A stretch of 64,000 bases of DNA from an uncultured Gammaproteobacteria bacterium (GTDB taxonomy: Bacteria > Patescibacteriota > Patescibacteriia > UBA11705 > JABHMO01): assembly GCA_964565345.1 (NCBI GenBank), contig CAZMEQ010000001.1:9838-73837 (forward strand). The letters run 5' to 3'. Shown one piece after another: positions 2,454-21,966 of the stretch (within the stretch, counting starts at the first letter, position 1; each line of letters opens with the position of its first letter). The notes beneath the pieces are model-generated. The model made no database searches. It worked only from the letters and a program-made list of their open reading frames with translations, and was not told the DNA's origin. The position numbers and the translations under genes are program-made.

Positions 2454-2479
2454 AATTAGATAAATTTCTTTGTTTTTAC

Positions 2480-2508
2480 TTGATTTATATCAAAAAACAT
2501 GCTATAAT
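2480..2508 (+). promoter_or_regulatory. sigma70-like promoter driving the GC-rich gene 2566..3072
   Basis: TTGATT at 2480-2485, 17-bp spacer, TATAAT at 2503-2508 with an upstream TGC (extended -10, TGCTATAAT). It lies in low-GC DNA directly abutting the high-GC ORF. Confidence 0.5.
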
Positions 2509-2565
2509 ATAATGTTCGGAGTTGAATTCCGATCGATCAATCCAATTCAAGAAGGAGGTGTTCTC

Positions 2566-3072
2566 ATGAAACGCATGATGCGTTCGATCCTGGTTCTCGT
2601 TCTGGCGGTGGTGTTCTGCAGCGGCTGCGACTTCATCATGGTAGACCCGTACTCCTGCACCTACGACGAGCAGTGTGGCGACGGTCACTACTGTGATCTG
2701 GACAGCTACACCTGCTTCCTCGTCGCCTGGGAGTTCGGTGGCCCCAACTGGTGTTTCGAGGATTCCCAGTGCGGTCCCGGCTACGTCTGCAACCCTGCCG
2801 ACAATTTCTGCTACGAGGAGGGGAACGTAGGGTACCATCCGGAGGATCAGAACTACTTTACTGGGTGGGATGAGAGCACTGGGCAGTGCAAGAACCAGTC
2901 GCACTGTCGCCCCAACGAAATCTGCGCCAACGGCTGGTGCACGCTTCCGGCAGGTAGCCACAACGGCAACGAGCCGGGCTACTACGACAACGATGGCCGG
3001 TGCCAGGACCACACGCAGTGCGCCAGCGACGAGGTCTGCGCCAACGGTTGGTGCACCGAGGCGCATTGGTAG
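2566..3072 (+). CDS. secreted cysteine-rich repeat protein (signal peptide; four C-x5-6-C-x5-C-x5-6-C modules, two ending CANGWCT); high-GC island 1
   Basis: RBS GAAGGAGGTG lies 6 nt before ATG 2566. The N-terminus is MKRMMRSILVLVLAVVFCSGC. Repeats include CKNQSHCRPNEICANGWCT and CQDHTQCASDEVCANGWCT. G+C is far above the flanks, and the antisense shadow ORFs are typical of a high-GC gene. Confidence 0.7.
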   Translation: MKRMMRSILVLVLAVVFCSGCDFIMVDPYSCTYDEQCGDGHYCDLDSYTCFLVAWEFGGPNWCFEDSQCGPGYVCNPADNFCYEEGNVGYHPEDQNYFTGWDESTGQCKNQSHCRPNEICANGWCTLPAGSHNGNEPGYYDNDGRCQDHTQCASDEVCANGWCTEAHW

Positions 3073-3080
3073 ACAACAAA

Positions 3081-3112
3081 GGCCCCCCGATTCCCAAGTG
3101 AATCGGGGGGCC
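3081..3112 (+). terminator. perfect GC hairpin terminator of island 1
   Basis: GGCCCCCCGATTC ccaagtg GAATCGGGGGGCC, a 13-bp perfect stem immediately after stop 3070-3072. T-rich DNA follows. Confidence 0.7.
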
Positions 3113-3127
3113 TGTTCGTACATTTTT

Positions 3128-4681
3128 TTATTTTGCTAAATATTCTTGCAATAGTTTTTCTGTTACCTGCGGATCTGCCTTCCCCTTGGTTTCGCGCATA
3201 ATCAAACCGAGAAAATATTTTATCACCACCGTTTTTCCTGATTTATATTCAGCGACTTGTTCTGGATATTCGGCTACGGTTTTTATTATTATGTCGTTTA
3301 AAGCGCCTTCATCGCTAGTTTGAGAGAGGTCTAAATCTTCCATTATGTGTGAAGGGTCGGCTCCGGTTTCGGACATTTTTTTTAAAATAGTTTGAGCGGC
3401 TGCGCTATTAATTTTACTTTCATAGACAAGACAAATAAATTCGGCAAAATTTTCAGCCGTTATGTTACTCGAGTTAAAAGAAAGTCCAGATTCAGAAAGC
3501 AAAGGGAGGTATTTATTAACGAGCCAGTTAGAAACCAATTTGATTAATTTCGTTTTGTTATTAGCCCAAACTTCATCCTTGTTGCCACTAACATTATCGA
3601 GAGTTTCGATCCAATCCTTTAACTCAGTGATGACGTTTTCAGTAAACGAGGCCAATTTTTTATTTTCAGTTATTATTTTAGCTTCCTCGCCCGTGAAACT
3701 GTACATGTCCACAAAGCGACGTCTTTTATCTTGAGGGAGCTCGGGTATGGAAGATTTTATTTCAAGAATTTCTGCTTCGGTAATGTTTAATGGTGGCAAA
3801 TCTGGCTCGGGAAAGTAGCGATAATCGCTTTCGCCTTCTTTAACACGTTGGCTTATGGTTGTGCCACTAGCCTCGTCCCAACCGCGAGTTTCTTCTTTCT
3901 CCGGTGGAGTATTAGCTAACCAAAGGAGAGTTTGTCTTTCGACTTCATAGGCGAGCGCGCGTTCCAGCGCTTTAAAGGAATTGATGTTTTTTAATTCTGT
4001 TTTGGGGTAAAGTTTTTTGTCACTGACTGGTCGTAAAGAAATATTGCCATCACAACGCAGCTGTCCTTTTTCCATGTCTGCATCAGAAACATTTAAGTGG
4101 CGCATAATCAGTTGCAACTCTTGCCCAAAGGTTTTGGCTTCTTGCGGGCTGGAGAGGTCCGGTGCAGTTACAATCTCAATGAGTGGCGCTCCGCCACGAT
4201 TATAGTCAATTAAAGTTCCATCGCTGATATGCGTCGATTTGGCGGCATCTTCTTCCATATGCAAACGGATAATGCCAATTCTTTTTAGTTGTGTTTCATC
4301 TGTTAAGGAGCCAGCTAAACCATCACGAGCCTGCCAGTTTATAACCAAAGACCCACTTAAAGCGAGTGGTTTGTCGTATTGGGAGATTTGGTAGCCTTTA
4401 GGTAAGTCAGGATAAAAATAATTTTTCCGATCGAATTTGGTAAATTGAGTAATACTACAATTTAAAGCTAGGGCCGCCTTTATGGCCATGTTTACAGCTT
4501 CTTCGTTAATGGTGGGTAATACTCCTGGGTGACCTAAGCAGATAGGGCAGACATTGACATTGGGCTCCTTGGGGTCATTTTCGTTGGGGCAAGCACAAAA
4601 CATTTTAGTTTTTGTTTTGAGTTGAACATGGAATTCTAGCCCAATTATAGCTTCTAATTTCATAGGATAATGGTTAATCAA
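3128..4681 (-). CDS. gatB: Asp-tRNA(Asn)/Glu-tRNA(Gln) amidotransferase subunit B
   Basis: N-terminus EAIIGLEFHVQLKTKTKMFCACPNE is GatB-like, plus a C-terminal GatB/YqeY-like tail. 517 aa. Confidence 0.9.
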   Translation of the reverse strand: MINHYPMKLEAIIGLEFHVQLKTKTKMFCACPNENDPKEPNVNVCPICLGHPGVLPTINEEAVNMAIKAALALNCSITQFTKFDRKNYFYPDLPKGYQISQYDKPLALSGSLVINWQARDGLAGSLTDETQLKRIGIIRLHMEEDAAKSTHISDGTLIDYNRGGAPLIEIVTAPDLSSPQEAKTFGQELQLIMRHLNVSDADMEKGQLRCDGNISLRPVSDKKLYPKTELKNINSFKALERALAYEVERQTLLWLANTPPEKEETRGWDEASGTTISQRVKEGESDYRYFPEPDLPPLNITEAEILEIKSSIPELPQDKRRRFVDMYSFTGEEAKIITENKKLASFTENVITELKDWIETLDNVSGNKDEVWANNKTKLIKLVSNWLVNKYLPLLSESGLSFNSSNITAENFAEFICLVYESKINSAAAQTILKKMSETGADPSHIMEDLDLSQTSDEGALNDIIIKTVAEYPEQVAEYKSGKTVVIKYFLGLIMRETKGKADPQVTEKLLQEYLAK

Positions 4682-4702: not shown

Positions 4703-4740
4703 AGTGAAAATAAAACTCTGCATTTTAGGTGGCAGAGCTT
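4703..4740 (-). terminator. hairpin terminator ending the deoxypyrimidine operon
   Basis: On the minus strand: GCTCTGC cacctaaaat GCAGAG followed by TTTTATTTT, immediately after the tmk-tdk stop. Confidence 0.5.
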
Positions 4741-4746
4741 TATTCA

Positions 4747-6087
4747 TTATGAAGAATAATGTTTTTTATACTTGTTCTTGCAATGACGGCACAGTGCTAT
4801 GTATTGTTTGTCTCCCACCAAAATTTTTCCATCTAGTTGTTGTCTAGCGTTATTATCTAGCCAGCTCTTATTAGCTGTTTGACTCCCACATTCTACGCAA
4901 ACGGCTAGTTCTTTAGTTACAAATTCTGCTTCCACCATCAAAGCCGGTACTGGTCCAAAACCTTCATCGTCAAAAGTTTGATCTAAGCCGACAACAATAA
5001 CCCGCAACTTATAATCTTCAGCCAATCTTTTGCAAACTTGGACCAGGGAAAAATGGCAGAAATGTGCTTCTTCAATCACGACTGTAGTAACTTTTGGGTT
5101 ATATTGTTCGATATATTGGAGTATTAAGCTAGGTTGATCTTTGGGGAACTCAATGGCCGAAAAAACTTTGCCATTGCGGCTAACTAATTTCCCGGCAGTA
5201 TTAATATTCGCACCGGTTTCAGAAATAGTAATTTCTCGTTTTGATTCCTGTGGAGTAAAGATTAAAACTTCACGATTTTTTGACAAAAGTTCTTTTTCAA
5301 TTCTTTTGGCCGCTTCAGTGCTTTTGCCAGAAAACATACAGCCGCAAATAACTTCTATCCAACCTTCTTTGTTGGTTTCCATGATAGGTGGTTTTACATT
5401 TAAGAGTTGTTCTACTTCTTTCCAAACAGCGTTTTGTATTTCTTCACGAGTCATAATGCTATTGTTTCTGGTACATTCAATAAGCTTAAAGTTTGGATAA
5501 CTGGCAATTTCTAAATATGTTTGTTCGGCTCGTCTTAGGTGTTCAATATCTTCTTCATGAATGTCTTTTGTTTTGCCTTTCCAATCTTCGCGATGTCGTT
5601 CTTGGGCTAATTGTTGTGCGATATGCGAATCAACATGCAAAATGATATTCAAATCTGGCTGCGGAATTTTAAAAAGATTATATTCTAAATCGTAAAGCCA
5701 GTCGAAAAAGACTTTGCGTTCTTCGCTGTCATGGAGCTTTGCGCCTTGATGTCCCATGTTGGCTGAAACATAGCGATTGCTTACAACTATTTTACCTTCT
5801 TCGAGCCAGCGGCGTATTTTAAAGCTGGCATCATAACGGTCGCAAGCATAAAAGATTGAAGATATTTTGGGGTTGACTTGATCAGCTGTGCCATATTTGC
5901 CACTCAAGTATTCTTCCACTAATCCTGCCGATTTTGTATTGTATTGAGGGAAATCAGCGATTTCTACAGCAAAACCACGTTGCTTTAGGTTTTCTAAAAG
6001 TAGCGAGAACTGGGTTGTTTTTCCAGAACCGTCTGTCCCATCAATAACAATAAATTTTCCAGGCAAGTTTTGCATAAATTTATTCAT
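4747..6087 (-). CDS. fused thymidylate kinase (N-terminal) / thymidine kinase (C-terminal) bifunctional protein
   Basis: N-terminal half has FIVIDGTDGSGKTT, a P-loop and a CDRY motif (Tmk). C-terminal half has ICGCMFSGKSTE, VIEEAHF, GLDQTFDDEGF and a terminal C-x2-C...C-x2-C zinc ribbon (type II Tdk). Confidence 0.8.
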   Translation of the reverse strand: MNKFMQNLPGKFIVIDGTDGSGKTTQFSLLLENLKQRGFAVEIADFPQYNTKSAGLVEEYLSGKYGTADQVNPKISSIFYACDRYDASFKIRRWLEEGKIVVSNRYVSANMGHQGAKLHDSEERKVFFDWLYDLEYNLFKIPQPDLNIILHVDSHIAQQLAQERHREDWKGKTKDIHEEDIEHLRRAEQTYLEIASYPNFKLIECTRNNSIMTREEIQNAVWKEVEQLLNVKPPIMETNKEGWIEVICGCMFSGKSTEAAKRIEKELLSKNREVLIFTPQESKREITISETGANINTAGKLVSRNGKVFSAIEFPKDQPSLILQYIEQYNPKVTTVVIEEAHFCHFSLVQVCKRLAEDYKLRVIVVGLDQTFDDEGFGPVPALMVEAEFVTKELAVCVECGSQTANKSWLDNNARQQLDGKILVGDKQYIALCRHCKNKYKKHYSS

Positions 6088-7066
6088 TTATAATCCCTTT
6101 GGTAAAAGGAACCTCCTTGTGGATTAGCTCGATAATTTTTAGCGTGAATGGATTGTTTATTTTACTCAGTTCAAAAAAACCTTGCAAATCAAGATCAAGC
6201 AACGCGGTTTGTTTAACACCTAGAGGGAGTACATAGTGATTATGGGTTTTTTCAAAGTGTGCTTTAATACGATCTAGAATTTTTATCACTTCAGGATAAT
6301 GTTTTGTTTCGTTAAGCCTATTGCTAGTGTCTTTTAAATTTTGGAAATTTGGTTGTCGAATAATCAGGCTGAATTTCCCCGTTGTAAAAAGGGGAATAAG
6401 ATCAAAAAGAGCAGTTTTTATTTTTAGAGTGCAAAAGGGTTTAGTGAAAATTATTTTTGGTATTTTGTAGGCTGTTTCTCGTTGGCAAATTTGTTCAATA
6501 TAATTTTCTTTTTGCTCCAATGTCATTAAGTCTATCTTTTCTGATATTTTCGCTATTGTTTCTGATTTAGATTGTAAGAGATGGTAAAATATTATTTTGT
6601 TTTCTATGGAGTGATCGAGATCAATTAGATTTATATCTCCAGAGCTGTCCATCTGAGGTGTAACCGAGTTGCTAATTGGTTCATTCTTATGTTTTATTGT
6701 CGTTGATTCCAAAATAATTTTCTCGGCTATGTTTTTTAGTTCATAGCTATTACTGTGCGACCACTTATGTACTAGCTGTAACCAATCTCCGGTAGGAATA
6801 AGAAATTCTAGCTGTACTAATCGGCCTAATGGGACTAGCTCAGGTAAATTAAATTGTTGGGCACTTCTTAATAATAAGTCAGTTAACTCAAAATATTTTT
6901 GTCTATCGGAAAAATTATCATCGACATAACAATCATTTCTTTCTAGGTACCAAAATTTCAAAAGCGCACTATTGGTACAAATTTCAATTAAGCTCCAATA
7001 AGACAATCCTGCAATATTAACGCGGACGATATCCTCCGTAATATTTGTCACTTGGGTCTCTGGCAT
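6080..7066 (-). CDS. hypothetical protein embedded in the deoxypyrimidine operon
   Basis: 328-aa ORF with no recognisable motifs. It overlaps the downstream gene by 8 nt and lies 1 nt from the upstream gene, so it is co-transcribed. Confidence 0.55.
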   Translation of the reverse strand: MPETQVTNITEDIVRVNIAGLSYWSLIEICTNSALLKFWYLERNDCYVDDNFSDRQKYFELTDLLLRSAQQFNLPELVPLGRLVQLEFLIPTGDWLQLVHKWSHSNSYELKNIAEKIILESTTIKHKNEPISNSVTPQMDSSGDINLIDLDHSIENKIIFYHLLQSKSETIAKISEKIDLMTLEQKENYIEQICQRETAYKIPKIIFTKPFCTLKIKTALFDLIPLFTTGKFSLIIRQPNFQNLKDTSNRLNETKHYPEVIKILDRIKAHFEKTHNHYVLPLGVKQTALLDLDLQGFFELSKINNPFTLKIIELIHKEVPFTKGIINE

Positions 7067-7067
7067 A

Positions 7068-7622
7068 TTACGCTTGGAGTTCTGTTAAAAGAGTTTCTAG
7101 CTGTTGGTAGAGTTCTTCTTTGGTGCCGTCGTTATTAATTTTAGTCTCAGCCTCGGCTACTACTTGGGGGATTGTTATTTCTGTCTCTTTTGTTTGGTCC
7201 AATTTGAATTGTTCAAAAGTTTTGTTTTTATCGTCCGGATTTTCGCTGCGTTCGATGATGCGATTGTAGCGCTTCATTTCGTCGGCATAGATGTGAATTA
7301 GGTGAAAATTGGGTAGGGTTTTTAAGTATTTAATATCAGCCACTCTTCTTATGCCATCCACACAAACAATTTCGTTGGTGTCGTTTTCAACATCTTTTGT
7401 AATAACTTTAGCAAAAAGATCTTCACCAAAATTTTGGCGTAGAACAGTGGATAGATTCTGCATGTTTTCTCGTGCTTGCGGCAAGTATAACCGATCCAAA
7501 ATATCGCGCATGATAGTGGAGAATTTATAATAACCGGCACCGTATTTTTCAATAAAGTAATCGCAGGCTGTCCCTTTGCCGCTGGCGATTTCACCAACAA
7601 ATCCAATGATTAATTTTTTCAT
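7068..7622 (-). CDS. P-loop nucleoside-monophosphate kinase-like protein (AMP/CMP/dNMP kinase superfamily)
   Basis: IIGFVGEIASGKGT Walker A of the adenylate-kinase type (GKGT). 184 aa. Sits between the dCMP-deaminase-like and tmk-tdk genes. Confidence 0.5.
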   Translation of the reverse strand: MKKLIIGFVGEIASGKGTACDYFIEKYGAGYYKFSTIMRDILDRLYLPQARENMQNLSTVLRQNFGEDLFAKVITKDVENDTNEIVCVDGIRRVADIKYLKTLPNFHLIHIYADEMKRYNRIIERSENPDDKNKTFEQFKLDQTKETEITIPQVVAEAETKINNDGTKEELYQQLETLLTELQA

Positions 7623-7625
7623 AGT

Positions 7626-8096
7626 TTATCTTTTAAAAAGTTCCCAAGCTTTTTCTACTAAGTAGACATTTTTTATACCACCTTTGATCATCGCGTTCCA
7701 GCAAGACTTACAGCACCACCAATGTCCATACATGTAAACATCAGCGCCTTCAGTTTTTATTTTATTTTTTTTAGCCTCGGCCATTAATCTCGATTCAGAA
7801 TGTTGTTTTGATGTCGCACAGCCAGGACATAACCAATACCCCTTGCCACTGGGAACTTTTAAAATTCGTCGCGCACAATATTTGCTGTGTAGTTTAATCA
7901 GTTTGGGATTAATCAGTTTGGACATGTTCGAAGCGCGGGCGACTATTTGGCCATCTTTAACCATAACTATCCCAATGGGATTTTTGGCGTCAGTGGATGC
8001 GGCCTGCATTTTTTTTGCTTCTAACATGAATTGGTTCTCGGCTGGTACATAGAGTATTTCTCGATCGGCGGGTAAATATGGGTAGGGGATGGTCAT
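7626..8096 (-). CDS. dCMP/cytidine deaminase-family zinc enzyme
   Basis: H-S-E (QHSESRLMAEA) followed about 30 aa later by WCCKSCWNAMIKGGI, matching the H(A)E ... PCxxC zinc-ligand pattern of ComEB/dCMP deaminases. Confidence 0.7.
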   Translation of the reverse strand: MTIPYPYLPADREILYVPAENQFMLEAKKMQAASTDAKNPIGIVMVKDGQIVARASNMSKLINPKLIKLHSKYCARRILKVPSGKGYWLCPGCATSKQHSESRLMAEAKKNKIKTEGADVYMYGHWWCCKSCWNAMIKGGIKNVYLVEKAWELFKR

Positions 8097-8098
8097 AG

Positions 8099-8776
8099 TC
8101 AGATTTTTAATTTAAATTGAGTTTTGAGTTCATCAATTTTACCGGCTTTGATTAAGTCTACCTCTTCATTTGCATCAATTTTCGCTTCTAGACCATATGG
8201 AGTAGATCCAATATATTTTCCAGTTTGTTTTCCGTGTGCCTTAGCTTCTTCTTCGCTTAATTCACTGGCTAATTCAAATAATTGGAGCTGGCAAATTCTT
8301 TCACCCGGATAAATTTTGATGATGTGATTACTGTTGTTTACGACTGGAATGGTAAGCTGGCCACTGTAACGGCAATCAACTACGCCAGTGTTTATTTGTA
8401 ATCCGCGGCGGAGTGCTGAACTTCTGGGGAAAAGATTGCCGGCGATTCGGCCTGTATTTAAGGTTATTTTCTCTAAGGTCGAAATAATTATTGTTTCCTT
8501 GGGAAGTATTTCAAAAAATTGACCTGGTTTTAATTTTATTAACTTGAAGTATTCTTCTACGTTTTGGTAATCCAAATAGTCAGCAATTACCGCTAAGCGT
8601 CCTTTGTCGTTATATTTCCAGGTGTCAGGGATATAAAAACTCCAACCCACGCGTAAATCAATGGAATTCGGTTGCAATTGATATTCATCAAGTTCAGGCG
8701 TAAAGACTAGGGCCCCGCTGGAAATTAAATTTTGCATTTCTTTTTTCGTCAGTACCATAGGATTATTGTTAGTCAA
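8099..8776 (-). CDS. dcd: dCTP deaminase/dUTPase-superfamily protein
   Basis: QPNSIDLRVG and PRSSALRRGLQINTGVVDCRYSG motifs match Dcd/dUTPase family signatures. Confidence 0.75.
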   Translation of the reverse strand: MTNNNPMVLTKKEMQNLISSGALVFTPELDEYQLQPNSIDLRVGWSFYIPDTWKYNDKGRLAVIADYLDYQNVEEYFKLIKLKPGQFFEILPKETIIISTLEKITLNTGRIAGNLFPRSSALRRGLQINTGVVDCRYSGQLTIPVVNNSNHIIKIYPGERICQLQLFELASELSEEEAKAHGKQTGKYIGSTPYGLEAKIDANEEVDLIKAGKIDELKTQFKLKI

Positions 8777-8783
8777 ATTTAGA

Positions 8784-9296
8784 TTATTGAATGATTTTAT
8801 AGCGTAGATTTATAACGTTTTGTCCTAGGTCTCTGGTTTCTAACAGTTCAAGTTTAATATTAAGGTCTAAATCTTTAAAGAGTGTTAACCCGCCGCCAAA
8901 AAGAATCGGTTCCACTGTTATTTGTAATTCATTGACTAAGCCGGCTTGTAAGAATAGGGAATTAATAGTCGTCCCGCCACCGAGTATAACTTCTTTGTAA
9001 CCACGTTTTTCTAAGGAGCCTAGTAATTCTTGTGGTGGAAGGTTTGTGTATTCAAGTTTTTCTGGAATATTTGTTTCTAGCTCTGGCTCTTTAGTCAAGA
9101 TTATATTTAATCTGCCTGGCAGTGGTCTATTGATTGTTTTGTAGGTATTTAAACCCATTATAATAACACCGGCTTCTTTGGTACGTTGAATAAAGATTTC
9201 TTTATCCGCTGATGAGGTCCAGTCAGTTGATGTTTGATTAGAGTTTTTCGCAATAAAGCCATCTGCTGTCATTACCATCATTAAAGTAACTTTCAT
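8784..9296 (-). CDS. dihydrofolate reductase-family protein (RibD C-terminal/DHFR fold)
   Basis: MTADGFIAK ... VIIMGLNTYKTINRPLPGRLNIILT ... ILGGGTTINSLFLQAGLVNEL is the typical DHFR-family pattern. Adjacent to the ThyA homolog. Confidence 0.7.
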   Translation of the reverse strand: MKVTLMMVMTADGFIAKNSNQTSTDWTSSADKEIFIQRTKEAGVIIMGLNTYKTINRPLPGRLNIILTKEPELETNIPEKLEYTNLPPQELLGSLEKRGYKEVILGGGTTINSLFLQAGLVNELQITVEPILFGGGLTLFKDLDLNIKLELLETRDLGQNVINLRYKIIQ

Positions 9297-9300
9297 ATTT

Positions 9301-10131
9301 TTATAAAACTATTTTTAAGCCATTAATTGGACCAAGTGGTTTATATTTTGATTCTAATAGACCAGTAATTTCGTTAACTAAGGTTTCGTCGCCACGTTCG
9401 GCGCGGTCAAAATAATCAGACTGAGCTTCAAAGTGAACCGGAGGGTGATCATTGTCGCGTTCGATTAACTCCCAAGCTTGTTTGTAATGAATGTCGTATA
9501 TGTGAGCGTTGGAAATAGTATGTGTTAGTTTTCCAGGTTTAACTCCGAGTTTTCCAGCTAGTACGCAAAGCAATAAATAAAATCCCGCGACATCATGTGG
9601 GCAGCCGAGCATCATATCATTGGAACGGACAACACTATGTATATGTAATTTATTGGCGATAATATTGGCTGTCCAAGTAAAGGGGCAGGGAACGTTTTTT
9701 TTGGTTTCTGGATTACCCAAACCATCTTCGCGGGGGTCCCAAGTGATTACTACTCCATGACGTGAACCAGGGGTGCCTTGGAGATGTTGGACTAAAAGAC
9801 CCAGTTGATCCCGGCCAAAAGCATGGCGCCAACGATATCCATAAGCCGCGGGAATAGTGCCATCCTGCTCGGTAAAGTCTTGCCAAATCTTTGTGAATTT
9901 ATTTACAAAATCATCTGGATTTTTACTGCCCATGATAAACCAAATTTGTTCGGCTACAAAGAGTTTTATCGGTATTTTGCGCAAAGTTAAAAGCGGAAAG
10001 CCTTTGTCTAATTCAAAAGTTAGTCCTGGAATTATTTTGGTGTGGTGCCCGGTTCTTTCGTTGTATTCATCGAAGCCTTCATTCATTATTTTAAGAATTC
10101 CAGCTTTATAAAGTTCATCAAATTGTGTCAT
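9301..10131 (-). CDS. thyA: thymidylate synthase-family enzyme with Asp at the Asn177-equivalent specificity position; possible dCMP C5-methylase/hydroxymethylase
   Basis: Conserved blocks: FPLLTLRK, EQIWFIMG, YGYRWR, catalytic Cys in VPCPF, then R-S-N-D, PHDVAGFY and AHIY. A gapless alignment to E. coli ThyA from Cys146 to Tyr181 puts Asp at the position of Asn177, Pro at His147 and Val at Gln165. Confidence 0.85.
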   Translation of the reverse strand: MTQFDELYKAGILKIMNEGFDEYNERTGHHTKIIPGLTFELDKGFPLLTLRKIPIKLFVAEQIWFIMGSKNPDDFVNKFTKIWQDFTEQDGTIPAAYGYRWRHAFGRDQLGLLVQHLQGTPGSRHGVVITWDPREDGLGNPETKKNVPCPFTWTANIIANKLHIHSVVRSNDMMLGCPHDVAGFYLLLCVLAGKLGVKPGKLTHTISNAHIYDIHYKQAWELIERDNDHPPVHFEAQSDYFDRAERGDETLVNEITGLLESKYKPLGPINGLKIVL

Positions 10132-10240
10132 ATAGAAAATAACATTGTCTTCATTTTAACAGATAAATGGGGGGGAGGAAAGCACTTTTCTTGACAAGTT
10201 TTGCAAAAAATACCCTAGTAGGTGCATAACAAAATACCAC

Positions 10241-10268
10241 CCGGTAAAAGGGTGGTATTGGATGTATA
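10241..10268 (-). terminator. hairpin terminator after rplA
   Basis: On the minus strand: ATACCACCC ttttacc GGGTGGTAT followed by TTTTG. Confidence 0.5.
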
Positions 10269-10271
10269 ATT

Positions 10272-10955
10272 TTACTTAATTTCCAGCTTGATGCCAGGTC
10301 CCATGGTGGTGCAAAGAGTAGCATTTTTGATATATACACCCTTTGATGTCTCTGGTTTCACTTTTTTGACAGCATCGATGAAAGTTTGAAAGTTTTCCAC
10401 CAACTGAGCATCATTAAGGCTCAATTTCCCAACTATTTGATGGATATTGGCCGTGTCATCATTTTTAAAGGCAATTTTACCTTTTTTAAGTTCGCCAATT
10501 GTTCTGCCGAGGTTTTGTGTGATCGTTTCGTTCTTTGGTGAGGGCATTAATCCTTTGGTACCAAGCATTCTGGCCAGAGGGGCCAAATTTTTCATGATTT
10601 CTGGGATGGCTACGGCTATTTCAAAGTCGATTTTACCTGATTTTTGTAGTTCAGCTAGGTTTGATTCTGTGTAGATGACGTCAGCTCCAGCGGCCTTTGC
10701 TTCGGCGGCTTTTTCCTCGGTTACAAAGGCAGCTACAACTTTTGATTTACCAAAGCTATGAGGCAAAACAACAGTACTGCGCACTTGTTGGTCCCCCTTT
10801 TTAGGGTCAATGCCAAGGCGTAGATGAACTTCCACTGATTCATCAAACTTTTTACCAGCAAGAGTTCTTGATAAAGTGACAGCTTCAGAAATGGAGTAAA
10901 GTTTGTTAGTTTCGATTTTAGCAGATTGCTTTTTGATTCTTTTTGATTGTGCCAT
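10272..10955 (-). CDS. rplA: 50S ribosomal protein L1
   Basis: GKKFDESVEVHLRLGIDPKKGDQQVRSTVVLPH is typical L1. 227 aa. Confidence 0.9.
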   Translation of the reverse strand: MAQSKRIKKQSAKIETNKLYSISEAVTLSRTLAGKKFDESVEVHLRLGIDPKKGDQQVRSTVVLPHSFGKSKVVAAFVTEEKAAEAKAAGADVIYTESNLAELQKSGKIDFEIAVAIPEIMKNLAPLARMLGTKGLMPSPKNETITQNLGRTIGELKKGKIAFKNDDTANIHQIVGKLSLNDAQLVENFQTFIDAVKKVKPETSKGVYIKNATLCTTMGPGIKLEIK

Positions 10956-15612: not shown

Positions 15613-16701
15613 ATGTTGAAAAATGCGTTTTACAATTTACGCCGCTTGGATTGGTTACTTGTTTTGGCTGTTTTTGGTCTTTTTTGCCTTGGTTTGGCAG
15701 CGATTTATAGTATTGATTTGAGCAAAGACCAGAGTGACAATTTTGAAAAGCAGGTTATTTTTGGTGTTGTCGGCCTCTTATTTATGTTTATTTTAGCCTC
15801 GATTAATTATTCGGGTTGGCTTATTACCGGAAGACTAATTTATGTCCTAACCTGGTTGCTTTTAATAGCAGTTCTTTTTTTGGGATCAACGATTAGAGGA
15901 ACACGTGGTTGGTTTAATTTTTTGGGTTTAGGTATTCAACCGGCAGAATTAGCAAAAGTGGTTTTAATTATTATGTTGGCACACTTTTTCAGTAACAGAT
16001 TACAGCAATTCAGAGTGGGGAAGCATATAGTTTTTAGTTTTTTAGTTACATTGTTGTATGTTGTCCCGGTTATGTGGCAACCAGATTTTGGTTCAGCTGC
16101 AATTATGTTGGGCATTTGGTTTATTTTATTGATTTTAACAGGAATCCCCAAGGGATATATTATTGTTTTGGTTTCAGTAATTATTTTTGTTATGTGCTTA
16201 TCCTGGTTTTTCTTTTTGGCTGATTATCAGAAAGAAAGAATTGAAACCTTTCTTGATCCAACTTCCGATCCATTGGGGAGTGGTTATAATGTTTCGCAGT
16301 CTATTATTGGCATCGGTTCTGGGTATATTTGGGGGCGTGGTTTGGGGTTCGGTTCACAAAGTCAATTAAAATTTATCCCCGAGAGCCAAACGGATTTTGT
16401 TTTTGCTGTTATCGCAGAAGAGTTGGGTCTTTTTGGCGTTATTTTGGTTTTAGGTCTTTTTGCTATAGTTTTTTATCGATTGATTGCTATCGCCCGTCGA
16501 GCGCACGATGATTTTGGTTTATTCTTGGTTTTGGGGATAGTTATTGTCTTATTTTTACATGTTTTTATTAATATTGGCATGAATATGGGGGTAATGCCAG
16601 TTACAGGAATTTCTTTGCCCTTTCTAAGTTATGGAGGAAGCTTTTTATTGATATGTTTAGCGATGGTTGGGCTGGCTCAAAGTGTGGCTGTTAGAAGATA
16701 G
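15613..16701 (+). CDS. SEDS-family peptidoglycan glycosyltransferase (FtsW/RodA)
   Basis: Polytopic membrane protein with the FtsW/RodA signature GSGYNVSQSIIGIGSGYIWGRGLGFGSQ ... FIPESQTDFVFAVIAEELG. Confidence 0.85.
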   Translation: MLKNAFYNLRRLDWLLVLAVFGLFCLGLAAIYSIDLSKDQSDNFEKQVIFGVVGLLFMFILASINYSGWLITGRLIYVLTWLLLIAVLFLGSTIRGTRGWFNFLGLGIQPAELAKVVLIIMLAHFFSNRLQQFRVGKHIVFSFLVTLLYVVPVMWQPDFGSAAIMLGIWFILLILTGIPKGYIIVLVSVIIFVMCLSWFFFLADYQKERIETFLDPTSDPLGSGYNVSQSIIGIGSGYIWGRGLGFGSQSQLKFIPESQTDFVFAVIAEELGLFGVILVLGLFAIVFYRLIAIARRAHDDFGLFLVLGIVIVLFLHVFINIGMNMGVMPVTGISLPFLSYGGSFLLICLAMVGLAQSVAVRR

Positions 16702-16772
16702 TCTCTTGGGTTGACTAAAATAAGTACTTTTGGTATAATCCTTCTCGATATTAAGAAACTAAGTTTTCGTAT

Positions 16773-17438
16773 ATGATTTACAATTTAGAGGCATCTATTA
16801 GAAAAGAATTAAAAAAGAAGGTCCAGACGTTACGAAAAAACAGTTTGGTGCCTGGTGTTATTTATGGCCCAGAGGTCAAAGAGAATATTAATATCTCAAT
16901 TGATGCGGTTAAGTTAGAAAAAATTTATAATGAAGCTGGTGAAAACTCGTTGATCAATTTAACACTTGATAGCGGGAAGGAAGCTTTAGAAGTTTTGATT
17001 AAGGATGTTGTTTTTTCTCCAGTGAGCCATCGCATTGATCATGTTGATTTCTATCAAATTAAAAAGGGTCAAAAATTGGATATTGAACCAGAATTGGTTT
17101 TCTTTGGTGTCGCGCCTGCAGTTAAAGAATTGGGTGGAATTCTGGTTAAAAATCTTGATAAAATTGAAATTCGTTGTTTACCCAAGGATATGATTTCTGA
17201 GATTCAGGTGGATTTAACAAGTCTAAAAACTTTTGAAGATAAAATTTTAGTTAAGGACTTAAATATTCCAGAAAGCGTTGAAGTTTTGACAGATCTTGAA
17301 GAAGCGGTTGCTGTTATTTCTAAACCAGAGGAAGAAGAAAAATCTCAGGGAAGTGCTGAAGTTAAGGAGCCTGAGGTTATAGGTAAGAAAGAAGCTCCAG
17401 CAGAAGGTGGTGAAAACAAGGGAGACAAAAAAGAATAA
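16773..17438 (+). CDS. rplY: 50S ribosomal protein L25 (Ctc form)
   Basis: SIRKELKKKVQTLRKNSLVPGVIYGPEVKENINISI is an L25 N-domain, followed by an acidic/Lys-rich C-terminal tail. Confidence 0.8.
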   Translation: MIYNLEASIRKELKKKVQTLRKNSLVPGVIYGPEVKENINISIDAVKLEKIYNEAGENSLINLTLDSGKEALEVLIKDVVFSPVSHRIDHVDFYQIKKGQKLDIEPELVFFGVAPAVKELGGILVKNLDKIEIRCLPKDMISEIQVDLTSLKTFEDKILVKDLNIPESVEVLTDLEEAVAVISKPEEEEKSQGSAEVKEPEVIGKKEAPAEGGENKGDKKE

Positions 17439-17493
17439 TTTGCTTTAGCTTAAAAAGTGCCTTATATTGTAGAAGTATAAGGCACTTTTATTT

Positions 17494-18534
17494 ATGCTTA
17501 AAATAAGAAAACAACGTTTTAGTTTTATCTTTTTAATTGTTTTGTTGGTGGTATTTTTATCGATCGCCGTTGCTGTTGTAGTTAAGAATACCAAAACCGT
17601 AAATATTCCTATAAGCTCAATAAAAGAGACAGGCGATTTGTCTCAAGGCGTGTGTGAGTCTAGGCTGGCTATTGATGGCACCTGTATTGAAGGAATTGAC
17701 CCGGGAGTTTTTGCTGTGATGATTGATAATCATGTGGGAGCCAGGCCATCAGCGGGGTTGAGTCAGGCTAGATTGGTTTATGAAACAATCGTAGAACACC
17801 CGATTACTCGTTTTTTGGCTGTGTTTTCTTTTCTTGATGAAGTAGAGAAGATTGGACCTATCCGTTCGGCTCGCCCTTTTTATGTCGACTGGGCAAAAGA
17901 GTTTAATGGCCCGTATGTTCATGTTGGTGGGAGTGATAAGGCAATTGAAACTTTAAATGCAACCTATAAGTTTAATTTGGACGAATTTTATAACGGTAAA
18001 TATTTTTATCGAGACAATTACCGTAGTGCTCCGCACAATGTTTTTACTTCTAGTTTGAAAGTTAACCAGGCACTAAAAGATAAAGAATGGGTTCCAGAAG
18101 TTAGTTTTTCTTCATGGAAATACAATAATGAGGTCCCAGAAGATGGGGGGATAAAAACATTAGAGCTAAATTTTAAGACCTCCGATTTTTTAGTCCGCTG
18201 GGAATACGACGTGACAACAAAAGAATATGTCAGATATCAAAAAAATAAAATTCATGCCGATTTTGATGGAAGGGAAATACGTGCTAAGAACATTGCAGTA
18301 GTATACACAGATAGTGAGATTGTTGATGGGTATGGTCGCTTGGAAACAAGAACTATAGGTCGTGGTCCGAGTTTAGTTTTTAGAAATGGAGAAGTTGTGG
18401 AGGGATATTGGCAGAGGGAGTATTTGGCTGATAGAACTACTTTTTATGATAAGGCGGGGAATGAAATAACTTTTAATATCGGAACAACCTGGATAGAAGT
18501 AATAACGCCAGGTTGGGCTGAGGTCAAGTATTAA
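17494..18534 (+). CDS. secreted DUF3048-like protein
   Basis: N-terminal TM/signal. Motifs PSAGLSQARLVYETIVEHPITRFLAVF and GPIRSARPFY recall the DUF3048 family. Confidence 0.45.
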   Translation: MLKIRKQRFSFIFLIVLLVVFLSIAVAVVVKNTKTVNIPISSIKETGDLSQGVCESRLAIDGTCIEGIDPGVFAVMIDNHVGARPSAGLSQARLVYETIVEHPITRFLAVFSFLDEVEKIGPIRSARPFYVDWAKEFNGPYVHVGGSDKAIETLNATYKFNLDEFYNGKYFYRDNYRSAPHNVFTSSLKVNQALKDKEWVPEVSFSSWKYNNEVPEDGGIKTLELNFKTSDFLVRWEYDVTTKEYVRYQKNKIHADFDGREIRAKNIAVVYTDSEIVDGYGRLETRTIGRGPSLVFRNGEVVEGYWQREYLADRTTFYDKAGNEITFNIGTTWIEVITPGWAEVKY

Positions 18535-20046: not shown

Positions 20047-20126
20047 GAAAAGCTCTTTTGAAGGCGGTTGCAGGATGTAGCCGTCTGTCTGGTTCAGTTC
20101 AAAATTCCATTGGGAGGTACCCGACC

Positions 20127-21077
20127 ATGAGGAAAAACATCCTCACCCTGTGCCTGATCGTCCTGTCCCTGGCGGCCTGCTCCACGAAGGAGAAGCCCGC
20201 CGACCCCGCGCCTGTCGCGGTGGCGCCCGTGCCCGAGGTCTGCACCATGGACAAGGCCAAGGCGCAGGTCCAGTACCGGGGCTTCGATGTCGCGATCGAG
20301 GGCGACACCCTGGTCTTCACCAAGGTGCTCTCCGGCGCCGACGGCCAGCGCCTCGGTCGCGAGATGCACGAGTTCAAGGTCGAGGACGACCAGGGCCAGT
20401 GCAAGCTGACCGAGTGCGTTGCCAGCCGCGAGGTCTCGGGCGAGAAGCTCGAGAATCTGTTCTGCCAGAAGCGTTCGCGCTTCTACAAGAACGGCGCGCT
20501 GGTCTGGGAGGACACCCTCCTCAAGGACAGCCAGTGGCTGCGCAGCTACGCCGGCCTAGACAAGGTCCTGATGGACGCGCCCAACTGGGCTTCGTCCGAT
20601 GGAATGGACATCTACATGACCTGGGTCTTGCGTTCGGCCGACAAGGCTGTGCGGGTGCCGGTCTGGGGCGTCCGGGCTATCTGGATCCGGGAGGGCGACG
20701 ACTACACCCTCATGGGCGGGGAAGTCGTCCTCAAGAACCCGAAGCGCGCCCCCACACCCGAGGAGGTCGTGACCTTCCTGCGCACCAACGCGCAGGGCGA
20801 GGTCAACACGCGTGGCGTCCTGTACCCGGTCTCCGGGGAGACGTTCACGGCCTATCTCTCGTACCTCAAGGACGAGGATAAGGGCTGGGAGCGAGACCAC
20901 GCCGGCGACAGCGAGGCCATGCTGGCCCACTTCGACGGGCCGGTCAAGCTCTCGCGTGGCCAGACCTGGCCGCTGGAGCGCGTCTTCCAGCACCGCGGCA
21001 CCCAGCAGTCCCGGCTGCCCAACGTGGACCCCGGCTTCCTGCCGGGCTTCCCGCTGGTCCCCAAGCTGGGCCAGTGA
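20127..21077 (+). CDS. lipoprotein of unknown function; high-GC island 2
   Basis: RBS GGGAGGT precedes ATG 20127. The N-terminus MRKNILTLCLIVLSLAACS has a canonical lipobox (L-A-A-C). G+C is far above the flanks. The ORF track's upstream extension to 20058 is not supported. Confidence 0.7.
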   Translation: MRKNILTLCLIVLSLAACSTKEKPADPAPVAVAPVPEVCTMDKAKAQVQYRGFDVAIEGDTLVFTKVLSGADGQRLGREMHEFKVEDDQGQCKLTECVASREVSGEKLENLFCQKRSRFYKNGALVWEDTLLKDSQWLRSYAGLDKVLMDAPNWASSDGMDIYMTWVLRSADKAVRVPVWGVRAIWIREGDDYTLMGGEVVLKNPKRAPTPEEVVTFLRTNAQGEVNTRGVLYPVSGETFTAYLSYLKDEDKGWERDHAGDSEAMLAHFDGPVKLSRGQTWPLERVFQHRGTQQSRLPNVDPGFLPGFPLVPKLGQ

Positions 21078-21085
21078 CAACAACG

Positions 21086-21142
21086 CGGTTGGCGTAACCA
21101 ACCACCCCCACATCGACACGTCGGTGTGGGGGTATTTTGTTG
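21086..21142 (+). terminator. tandem GC hairpins plus T-run terminating island 2
   Basis: GGTTGG cgtaa CCAACC, then CCCCCACATCGA cacg TCGGTGTGGGGG, followed by TATTTTGTTGTT. Confidence 0.6.
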
Positions 21143-21192
21143 TTACTAATCAACAAATTTTGTATAATGTTTTTAGAAATAAAATAATTTAT

Positions 21193-21966
21193 ATGACCTT
21201 GGATAAAGAGTTACAAAAAATCGGACTATCGGATAAAGAAGCGAAAGTTTACTTGGCAGCATTGGAATTAGGACAAGCTTCGGTTCAAAATATTGCCCGC
21301 AAAGCTGAAGTTAATCGCGCCACAACTTATTCTATTTTAGAGTCATTGATTAAAAAGGGCTTGTGCAGTATCAGCGAAAAAGATAAAAAAGTTTTTTATT
21401 TTGCTAGCGCGCCCGAGTCGTTACTTTCAATTTTTGATATTAAAAGGAAACATCTTGAAACAGAGGAAGAGGTTTTTAAAAGACTATTGCCAGAATTAAA
21501 TTCTGTTTTTAATAAACAAGCCGACAAGCCAACCGTACGTTTTTTTGATGGCAGACAAGGGTTGATTAATAGTTTGGGCGAATTTTATCGTGAAAAAACT
21601 GATGGCAATGAGCCAGTGCGCATGGTCTATAATAAAGATTTAATTGAAAAAACAATTGATGAAAGAGAACGACAAAAATTGAGAAAGATACGATTAACTA
21701 GAGAAATAAAATCCAAAGTTATATATAGCTACGAGGGCGGAGTTTTAAAAACAAACGTTGATGGCCAAAGAAGAAAAATTAATGGTGACGAATATCCTAT
21801 TTCATGTGATATAGAAATTTTGGGTGATGCAGTTATGTTTGTGCCTTTAACTGAAAAACTTCACGCTGTTTTAATTAAAGATAGACAAATAGCCGAAACA
21901 TTAAAGAGTTTTTTTGATCTGGCTTGGATTGGGGCCGAAATAAAAGAAGTTAAAGAGGAAAAATAA
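21193..21966 (+). CDS. TrmB-family transcriptional regulator
   Basis: N-terminal wHTH LSDKEAKVYLAALELGQASVQNIARKAEVNRATTYSILESLIKKGL is typical of TrmB-like regulators. The start was set at the first Met in low-GC sequence. The longer ORF in the track runs through the GC-rich island in the same frame by chance. Confidence 0.65.
   Translation: MTLDKELQKIGLSDKEAKVYLAALELGQASVQNIARKAEVNRATTYSILESLIKKGLCSISEKDKKVFYFASAPESLLSIFDIKRKHLETEEEVFKRLLPELNSVFNKQADKPTVRFFDGRQGLINSLGEFYREKTDGNEPVRMVYNKDLIEKTIDERERQKLRKIRLTREIKSKVIYSYEGGVLKTNVDGQRRKINGDEYPISCDIEILGDAVMFVPLTEKLHAVLIKDRQIAETLKSFFDLAWIGAEIKEVKEEK

Follow-up and report, generated by a model that had tools for sequence, protein, structure and literature searches.

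A thymidylate operon of Patescibacteria that may run through 5-methyl-dCMP instead of dUMP

Which deoxynucleotide does a bacterial thymidylate synthase (TS) homologue methylate when its active site carries the residues of a phage cytosine-modifying enzyme? This question is raised by a 64-kb stretch of contig CAZMEQ010000001.1 (assembly GCA_964565345.1), here called the window, from a member of the Patescibacteria (Candidate Phyla Radiation, CPR). The window contains an operon of seven genes that encode a ThyA homologue, a dihydrofolate reductase (DHFR), a Dcd-like protein, a protein of the dCMP-deaminase family, a nucleotide kinase, a protein of 328 amino acids (aa) and a fusion of thymidylate kinase (Tmk) with thymidine kinase (Tdk). 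An earlier note on this DNA compared the set with the modified-pyrimidine pathways of phages and proposed either cytosine modification at the nucleotide level or a bypass from dCMP through 5-methyl-dCMP (5mdCMP) to dTMP. The answer that we favour, with moderate confidence and on the basis of sequence comparisons, is a housekeeping thymidylate operon of Patescibacteria that runs via 5mdCMP and not via dUMP, in the order dCTP, dCMP, 5mdCMP, dTMP and dTDP.

The ThyA homologue and its phage relatives

The ThyA homologue belongs to the TS superfamily (PF00303, E 9.4e-49), and Cys146, Glu58, Tyr94, Arg21/126/166 and Asp169 (E. coli numbering throughout) are invariant in 121 database homologues. Its best matches in the Protein Data Bank (PDB) are genuine TSs, to which it is ~35% identical. 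The Asp-for-Asn replacement reported in the earlier note is real: in three PDB alignments and in a MAFFT alignment, E. coli GLPFN(177)IASY aligns with GCPHDVAGF of the window protein. The substitutions comprise N177D, H147P, W83F, Q165V, C168N, F176H, D205N and R127H; C146, E58, Y94, R21, R126, R166, S167, D169, H207, Y209, W80 and a TS-like C-terminal tail are kept. Across the 121 database homologues and the sampled species loci, N177D, H147P, W83F, Q165V/I/L, C168N and D205N are invariant or nearly so, with D177 present in 121/121 homologues and 80/80 species loci and P147, F83 and a non-Gln residue at 165 travelling along. Thousands of relatives from Patescibacteria are annotated as 'thymidylate synthase'. 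Nevertheless, the CPR proteins do not conform to canonical dUMP-specific ThyA (EC 2.1.1.45), since all members carry Asp177, Val/Ile/Leu165 and Pro147 where canonical enzymes have Asn177, the Gln165 that orients it and the His147 of the water network at O4, and the window protein falls below the cut-off of every NCBIfam ThyA equivalog (for example, 107.8 versus 108.35 for TIGR03284 and 130.8 versus 327 for NF002497).

Asn177 is the established switch between uracil and cytosine specificity, and TS mutated by N177D or N229D becomes a methylase of dCMP (Liu & Santi 1992; Hardy & Nalivaika 1992; both cited in PMC8670742). The same paper gives positions 177 and 147 as the top discriminators between cytosine-modifying and ordinary TS homologues in metaviromes. 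The closest phage relatives of the CPR protein (33–38% identity) lie in one clade, that of Xanthomonas phages Mallos and Xp12, Pseudomonas phage PaMx74, Achromobacter phage 83-24, Rhodobacter phage RcSimone-Hastad and Ruegeria phage Tedan. The window protein and Xp12 TS are 36% identical (BLASTP, E 5e-45). F83, P147, a hydrophobic residue at 165 and D177 are common to this phage clade and the CPR proteins, whereas a D177 'pyrimidine hydroxymethylase' that was compared retains W83, H147, Q165 and D205. In a neighbour-joining tree with few outgroups, CPR and Xp12-type sequences formed one clade in 199/200 bootstraps. CPR ThyA therefore shares both the signature and the clade of the Xp12-type dCMP C5-methyltransferases, and formation of 5mdCMP is predicted for it. 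The expected reaction would depend on methylenetetrahydrofolate (CH2-THF) and yield 5mdCMP and dihydrofolate (DHF). Reductive methylation, with DHF as a product, is preferred to hydroxymethylation because a DHFR gene is adjacent and the C-terminal tail, W80 and Y94 are retained.

The phage systems provide a precedent. The D177 TS of these phages makes 5mdCMP, and a deaminase is proposed to yield T from nucleotides of 5-methylcytosine (5mC) (bioRxiv 10.1101/2024.12.05.627091). Xp12 TS and five of seven D177 TSs from metaviromes made 5mdCMP in vivo, and the deaminases encoded beside D177 TS genes are proposed to yield T nucleotides, bypassing a second TS. A 'new thymidylate biosynthesis' specific to Xp12 was described long before (Kuo, Chow & Lin 1982, as cited in PMC8543423). 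Among MetaGPA contigs, tight linkage of TS and deaminase amounts to 70% in cytosine-modifying systems versus 6%. The phage TS gene is flanked by genes for a MazG/HAD-type NTP pyrophosphatase, a dCMP-deaminase-family protein and a DHFR; the Xp12 DHFR-like protein is 28% identical to the window DHFR (E 9e-11), and both are of the RibD_C type.

Conservation of the cluster and its partner enzymes

When one genome per species was scanned with a sequence pattern, the D177-type ThyA appeared in at least 440 species genomes, almost all from Patescibacteria; the pattern was strict and the count is a lower bound. These genomes cover Falkow-, Kuenen-, Magasanik-, Jackson-, Harrison-, Moran-, Doudna-, Portnoy-, Shapiro-, Woese-, Nomura- and Uhr-bacteria, plus further groups. 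Linkage was counted in the 44 species loci that have 6 kb or more of sequence to either side of ThyA, a gene being scored if it lay no more than 6 kb from ThyA. By this measure, the deaminase accompanied ThyA in 40 loci, the Dcd-like gene in 39, DHFR in 34, Tmk in 26, the kinase in 20, Tdk in 5 and the 328-aa open reading frame (ORF) in 2, and thus the linkage of TS, deaminase and DHFR seen in Xp12-type phages also characterizes CPR loci. A search for the co-occurring gene order, proposed in the earlier note, showed that dozens of species across Patescibacteria share the order ThyA-DHFR-Dcd-like-deaminase(-kinase-Tmk-gatB), and therefore the arrangement is not due to chance. In the nearest genome, Parcubacteria GW2011_GWA2_40_23, ThyA is 90% identical and the seven-gene order is the same. 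That note would have abandoned its proposal if the operon were conserved in relatives as a plain dTMP cluster around a normal synthase; the operon is indeed conserved, but the Asp signature is conserved alongside it.

The phage-like island implied by the earlier note gives way to a core chromosomal housekeeping cluster, found beside rplKA/gatB across many classes of Patescibacteria, with lineage-specific additions; it is neither mobile nor derived from a phage. Tdk and the 328-aa ORF are such additions and stand outside the core. Recognizable Xp12-type relatives exist for ThyA and DHFR only; close homologues in phages are lacking for the deaminase, the kinase and the Dcd-like protein. A phage origin of the whole cluster was rejected on these grounds: the deaminase has only weak matches in Clostridium phages (ComEB-like genes, the only phage hits of tblastn with the CPR deaminase), and the Dcd-like protein matches only archaeal-virus Dcd/Dut proteins, at 28–31% identity.

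The D177/P147 ThyA was also observed on four Chloroflexota contigs, three from metagenome-assembled genomes of Ktedonobacterales (L058, L060 and L065; 64–67% GC; L numbers designate related loci) and one from Anaerolineaceae (L079; 48% GC). These proteins show 55–57% identity and are accompanied by a Pro-type Dcd-like gene where sequence is available. Their GC content speaks against mis-binned CPR DNA. The pair of ThyA and Dcd-like genes in Ktedonobacterales suggests that cultivable organisms may exist in which the route could be tested.

The Dcd-like protein, which has an alternative ATG start at residue 7, bears the motifs of the trimeric dUTPase superfamily: the Asp of E. coli Dcd D128 / Dut D90 is present in 71/75 homologues and R-S-S..R in at least 69/75. 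At the site of the catalytic Glu (alignment to Mtb E129 / E. coli E138), the window protein has Pro, as do 67/70 complete cluster-linked homologues, the other three having Ser, and its TIGR02274 score is 91.2 bits against a cut-off of 92.8. A role as dCTP deaminase (Dcd or bifunctional Dcd-Dut) was consequently rejected, the catalytic Glu being gone and the dUTPase-superfamily Asp and Arg-Ser-Ser retained. Fusions of Tmk with a canonical trimeric Dut were observed in three species (L022:13653-14828, L035:4310-5512 and a 397-aa ORF in L050). Their Dut domains match PF00692 with E values of 1e-26 to 1e-29, end in GFGSSG/GSTG and share their cluster with the Glu-less Dcd-like gene. The Dcd-like protein is thus not simply the dUTPase of the cell, and its candidacy as the sole dUTPase is weakened. 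It is probably a pyrophosphatase, predicted to act on dCTP (and/or dUTP) as a functional analogue of the phage NTP pyrophosphatase, and this is the weakest step of the pathway. The RibD_C-type DHFR is predicted to recycle the DHF formed by the ThyA homologue; folA genes from CPR complement E. coli delta-folA (PMC11974145).

The deaminase contains the H-x-E and C-x-x-C zinc motifs, and its fold is closest to that of dCMP deaminases. It is predicted to convert 5mdCMP to dTMP and possibly dCMP to dUMP. In three loci (L020:2638-3612, L026:12033-12944 and L041:12012-12899), the cluster deaminase carries a C-terminal Nuc_deoxyrib_tr domain (DNPH1/Rcl-like, 'PSLGVGxELxxA'), and in a Jacksonbacteria locus (L016:11523-12611) a HAD_2 phosphatase domain takes its place. 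A dNMP N-hydrolase fused in this way could serve to remove dUMP or modified dNMPs that the cell does not want.

The operon kinase, which is also related to archaeal UPF0200 proteins, matches phage dNMP kinases (phrog_139, E 8.5e-22), NF006226 (E 3e-16) and SSO1041 (PDB 3lw7/3h0k, E 2.5e-12). A further, weak similarity (28 bits) connects it with the kinase-like N-terminal domain of NF041025, an 'anti-phage dCTP deaminase' that fuses kinase and deaminase, and the order of kinase beside deaminase may be related to that architecture. In the Tmk-Tdk fusion, Tmk occupies residues ~1-235 (nt ~5383-6087; PF02223 at residues 15-208, E 7e-24) and Tdk residues ~237-446 (nt 4747-5379; PF00265 at residues 242-436, E 1e-26), with further matches to NF005923 (E 3.8e-36) and NF003296 (E 3.1e-40). 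Both kinase assignments are borne out by the P-loops GTDGSGKTT and GCMFSGKST and by the zinc-ribbon cysteines of Tdk (CVECGS...CRHC). The same fusion is found in loci L004, L010 and L037.

The 328-aa protein, previously listed as unknown, turned out on profile comparison and motif inspection to be a derivative of ThyX without its catalytic residues. Seven members of the family matched nothing in Pfam even at E up to 10, and hhalign of the family against a single ThyX sequence was insignificant; the link emerged from a structure search and an all-against-library profile search alone. Profile-profile alignment (hhalign) of the family with tandem ThyX gave 99.6% probability and E 4e-24 over 314 columns. 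A search with the family profile among 1.84 billion representatives (50% clustering) found 31 proteins, the more distant of which are true tandem ThyX proteins (PF02511, E as low as 1e-56), one of them fused to Tmk. ThyX homology and fold are therefore supported. The ThyX motif (RHRxxSxxxxSxR, with substrate- and FAD-binding arginines) is missing: neither RHR nor S.RY occurs in the window protein or its L010/L037 relatives, and non-conserved hydrophobic residues fill the aligned positions of the family. The ORF is limited to the clade of the window (few CPR lineages), where it always lies between the kinase and Tmk/Tdk (L004:13070-14062, L007:12298-13416, L008:7041-8030, L010:13679-14530 and L037:14545-15417). 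The protein is a probable ThyX-derived pseudoenzyme, judging from these residues, and may be what is left of an ancestral pairing of ThyX with Tmk that the route through D177 ThyA displaced. Two further tandem forms were observed: a Tmk-ThyX-ThyX triple fusion of 741 aa adjoining serine hydroxymethyltransferase (L092:659-2884 and L093), and a 504-aa tandem ThyX on a contig with the archaeal markers Sec61-beta, L34e and aEF-1beta (L094:8001-9515). In these proteins, the two parts of the motif are divided: the first domain alone keeps the S..S.RY half, and RHR persists in the second alone.

The operon is as compact as first described, with seven co-oriented ORFs on the minus strand, junctions of 4, 7, 2, 3, 1 and -8 nt and a terminator-like hairpin at each end (Table 1). 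Families were assigned by Pfam, NCBIfam and PHROG profile searches, which agree with those named in the earlier note and give no family for the 328-aa ORF. The hairpin scanner was capped at 8-nt loops, and the hairpin past the last gene was read directly from the sequence. The 140-nt spacer before the thyA start presumably holds the operon promoter. Upstream lies rplA (10272-10955), and gatB (3128-4681) follows the downstream hairpin.

Table 1. Genes and hairpins of the thymidylate operon, with coordinates in the window
Feature	Coordinates	Strand	Basis
ThyA-family enzyme, 276 aa	9301..10131	-	Pfam PF00303 Thymidylat_synt, E 9e-49
RibD_C-type dihydrofolate reductase, 170 aa	8784..9296	-	PF01872 E 4.7e-22; PF00186 (DHFR_1) E 7e-13
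Dcd-like trimeric dUTPase-superfamily protein, 225 aa from TTG start	8099..8776	-	PF22769 E 2.4e-25
Divergent dCMP-deaminase-family zinc deaminase, 156 aa	7626..8096	-	dCMP_cyt_deam_1
P-loop (GxxxxGKGT) nucleotide kinase, UPF0200 / phage dNMP-kinase type, 184 aa	7068..7622	-	AAA_17; phrog_139
Degenerate tandem-ThyX homologue, 328 aa	6080..7066	-	Structure and profile search
Tmk-Tdk fusion, 446 aa	4747..6087	-	Thymidylate_kin (PF02223) and TK (PF00265)
rplA terminator-like hairpin, dividing rplA from the operon	10233..10259	-	10 pairs, 5 G-C
Terminator-like hairpin past the last gene	~4707..4738	-	CTCTGC, 10-nt loop, GCAGAG, then TTTTATTTT

The remaining window holds ordinary CPR housekeeping genes, including miaA, ftsW, L25, DUF3048 and gyrB. 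The order ftsW - ribosomal protein L25 - DUF3048 (15613-18534) is shared with a relative whose ThyA is 68% identical (L001:1-2478), where the block lies on the opposite side of the thymidylate cluster. At 2470-3072 (+), a gene for a predicted secreted Cys-rich repeat-like protein with recurring C..D..C / 'CANGWCT' motifs lies within local 44% GC (window 38%) and is overlapped by long antisense ORFs, including 2485-3123 (-) and 2858-3139. The segment 20001-22000 has 50% GC, versus ~38% elsewhere, and contains ORFs overlapping in several frames (20058-21077, 20150-20881 and 20812-21966); it has no Rfam match and is therefore not rRNA.

The proposed route and its rivals

In the proposed scheme, the Glu-less Dcd-like protein would hydrolyse dCTP to dCMP and PPi, a step only weakly indicated, and the ThyA homologue would methylate dCMP reductively with CH2-THF to give 5mdCMP and DHF, as its residue signature and its place in the Xp12 clade suggest. 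The RibD_C-type DHFR, of a family active in CPR, would regenerate THF, the divergent deaminase would turn 5mdCMP into dTMP, and Tmk would make dTDP. The Tdk fused to Tmk in this lineage would add thymidine salvage, the dNMP-kinase-like protein would serve deoxynucleotide salvage, and the ThyX relic would be catalytically dead. DNA would stay canonical, 5mdCMP being only an intermediate, and the route would correspond, on the chromosome and throughout the phylum, to the 'new thymidylate biosynthesis' of Xp12-infected cells. This reading is favoured because it explains the ThyA signature, the Xp12 clade, the linkage of TS, deaminase and DHFR, the loss of Glu from the Dcd-like protein and the coexisting Dut, and has a phage precedent. 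The bypass put forward in the earlier note is therefore the best explanation on the strength of signature, clade and linkage, although the deaminases of CPR and the 5mC-deaminases of the phages are not orthologous.

Several observations weigh against the 5mdCMP route. Orthology of the CPR deaminase with the phage 5mC-selective deaminases (mSCD) was not supported, as the profile model of the CPR deaminase gave the phage enzymes no more than 20 bits in hmmsearch, and the characterized phage enzyme mSCD-B5 acts on triphosphates and not on 5mdCMP. The loss of Glu excludes deamination by the Dcd-like protein but is no proof of dCTPase activity. Dictyostelium Dcd2, whose nearest prokaryotic relatives are Dcd homologues of CPR and Chloroflexi, complements E. 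coli delta-dcd (PMC10733785, in which the active-site residues are not given). The canonical Dut domains of some clusters imply that dUMP is made, which would be a dead end unless ThyA also takes dUMP. The clade with Xp12 comes from a neighbour-joining tree with a small outgroup sample. In favour of the route, the window and 1.26 Mb of flanking sequence (10-kb flanks of the loci) yielded neither a second ThyA nor a functional ThyX, the only ThyX relative there being the degenerate one.

The strongest rival, considerably less probable but still to be taken seriously, is an ordinary dUMP cluster, in which dUMP would come from dUTP through a dUTPase activity of the Dcd-like protein and from dCMP through the deaminase, ThyA would turn dUMP into dTMP despite Asp177, and DHFR, Tmk and Tdk would play their textbook parts. 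Such a role fits every gene, all database sources annotate ThyA as a thymidylate synthase, and genuine TSs are its best PDB matches at ~35% identity. In its motif III/IV region (GVVDCRYSGQLTIPVVN...PGERICQ), the Dcd-like protein is similar to Dut, the Dut-Tmk fusions of relatives show that dUMP is produced, and the complementation by a Dcd2 relative can be counted on the same side. The Asn-to-Asp TS mutants studied by Liu and Santi reportedly keep some dUMP activity. However, no natural or engineered Asp177 TS is known to prefer dUMP, and the entire active-site signature, not position 177 alone, is that of the Xp12-type 5mdCMP synthases. All members have Val, Ile or Leu in place of Gln165, the residue by which Asn177 is oriented to recognize uracil, the tight linkage of TS and deaminase is typical of cytosine-modifying systems, and a Dcd-like gene beside a canonical Dut in one cluster would be redundant. 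An ordinary dUMP cluster must therefore explain away a phylum-wide, multi-residue signature that marks dCMP methylases elsewhere.

The same enzymes could instead replace cytosine at the nucleotide level, 5mdCMP being phosphorylated by the clustered kinase and then by Ndk while a Dcd-like dCTPase depletes dCTP, so that much or all C would be 5mC and the deaminase would divert a part to thymidine nucleotides. The gene set is functionally equal to that of Xp12 and PaMx74, which replace C fully by 5mC; a kinase related to phage dNMP kinases lies within the operon; and the only characterized phage deaminase acts on 5mdCTP, which would place 5mdCTP in the pool if the CPR enzyme did likewise. No C5- or N6-methyltransferase motif was found in the window and no C5-methyltransferase in 1.26 Mb of related loci with D177 ThyA, a result that fits cytosine replacement but is uninformative, as the expected count is too low. 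The prior for this alternative is very low: we know of no cellular organism with wholesale 5mC DNA, and to our knowledge many CPR genomes have been sequenced with long reads without such a report. Moreover, the presence of Tmk in the core cluster points to a product at the monophosphate level (dTMP), the kinase is missing from over half of the clusters, and the deaminase and Dcd-like protein are unrelated to the phage proteins. Incorporation of 5mdCTP into DNA is accordingly rated improbable, given the low prior and given that the conserved partner is Tmk and not the kinase. Likewise improbable is the general claim that the Patescibacteria and some Ktedonobacteria with this cluster incorporate 5-methyl-dCTP, so that 5mC would stand for much or all of the cytosine in their chromosomes, which would be the first phage-style globally substituted base in cells. 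A hydroxymethylase acting on dCMP or another pyrimidine and feeding hypermodification is very improbable. D177 is also a hallmark of T4-type dCMP hydroxymethylases, but the CPR ThyA lacks the W83/H147/Q165 pattern, its F83/P147/V165 differing from the D177 'pyrimidine hydroxymethylase' compared here (not T4 gp42), and it keeps the TS-like C-terminal tail; the linked DHFR is not needed by a hydroxymethylase, and the cluster has no glycosyl-, amino- or other transferase genes.

Implications and comparison with known systems

Should dCMP prove to be the substrate of the ThyA homologue, a major radiation of bacteria would owe an essential DNA precursor to a route so far known only from infections by Xp12-type phages. 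Metabolic reconstructions that score 'thyA, dcd, dCMP deaminase' would then be wrong in mechanism, the loss of the deaminase residue from the Dcd homologue would be explained, and the nucleotide metabolism of CPR and of Xp12-like phages would be linked in evolution. The clusters would also be a large and diverse source of candidate 5mC-nucleotide deaminases and dCMP methylases of biotechnological interest, and they raise the question whether 5mC introduced at the nucleotide level occurs in any cellular DNA. The matter touches the core metabolism of an entire radiation and lends itself to direct testing. No paper linking CPR thymidylate synthases to Asp177 or 5mdCMP was found in a full-text literature search. 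The chemistry and the pairing of TS with a deaminase are already known from phages; the conserved chromosomal, cellular version, the combination of a Glu-less Dcd-like protein with a distinct deaminase, the attached Tmk/Tdk and the ThyX relic seem to be new.

The relic itself can be set against active tandem ThyX. The 328-aa ORF is homologous, has the same predicted fold and shares with tandem ThyX a position fused or adjacent to Tmk; it differs in having no RHR, S..S.RY or conserved arginines and in being ~180 residues shorter than the active forms. With the canonical dTMP pathway (Dcd/Dut or dCMP deaminase, ThyA with Asn177, FolA and Tmk), the operon shares the protein families, the step from dTMP to dTDP and a coupling of ThyA with DHFR like that of thyA-folA. 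However, its ThyA has Asp177, Pro147 and Phe83 and no Gln165, its Dcd homologue has lost the catalytic Glu, its DHFR is of the RibD_C type and every step is encoded in one operon.

The analogy with phage modified-pyrimidine pathways drawn in the earlier note holds, but the proper comparators are the 5mC phages Xp12 and PaMx74 and not T4. The T4 dNTP set (gp56 dCTPase/dUTPase, gp42, gp1, cd, td, frd and tk) covers the functions that were listed, and Asp177 matches gp42. Nevertheless, CPR have one ThyA-family gene, with a methylase and not a hydroxymethylase signature, where T4 has td and gp42, and the T4 genes are not clustered in this way; the CPR cluster is also devoid of glucosyltransferases. 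The Xp12/PaMx74 module, in contrast, resembles the CPR cluster in ThyA signature and clade, in its RibD_C DHFR and in placing four functions side by side, and these phages are described as reaching thymidine nucleotides from 5mC nucleotides without passing through dUMP. The two systems differ in that the CPR genes are chromosomal, lie between rplKA and gatB and occur in at least 440 bacterial species. The putative CPR pyrophosphatase is a Glu-less Dcd-like trimer and that of the phages a MazG/HAD enzyme, and the CPR deaminase, which bears a GHWWCC motif, belongs to a separate lineage specific to CPR. The CPR cluster further comprises Tmk, Tdk, a protein resembling dNMP kinases and the ThyX relic, and 5mC is a constituent of the phage DNA, whereas for the cellular DNA it would be conjecture.

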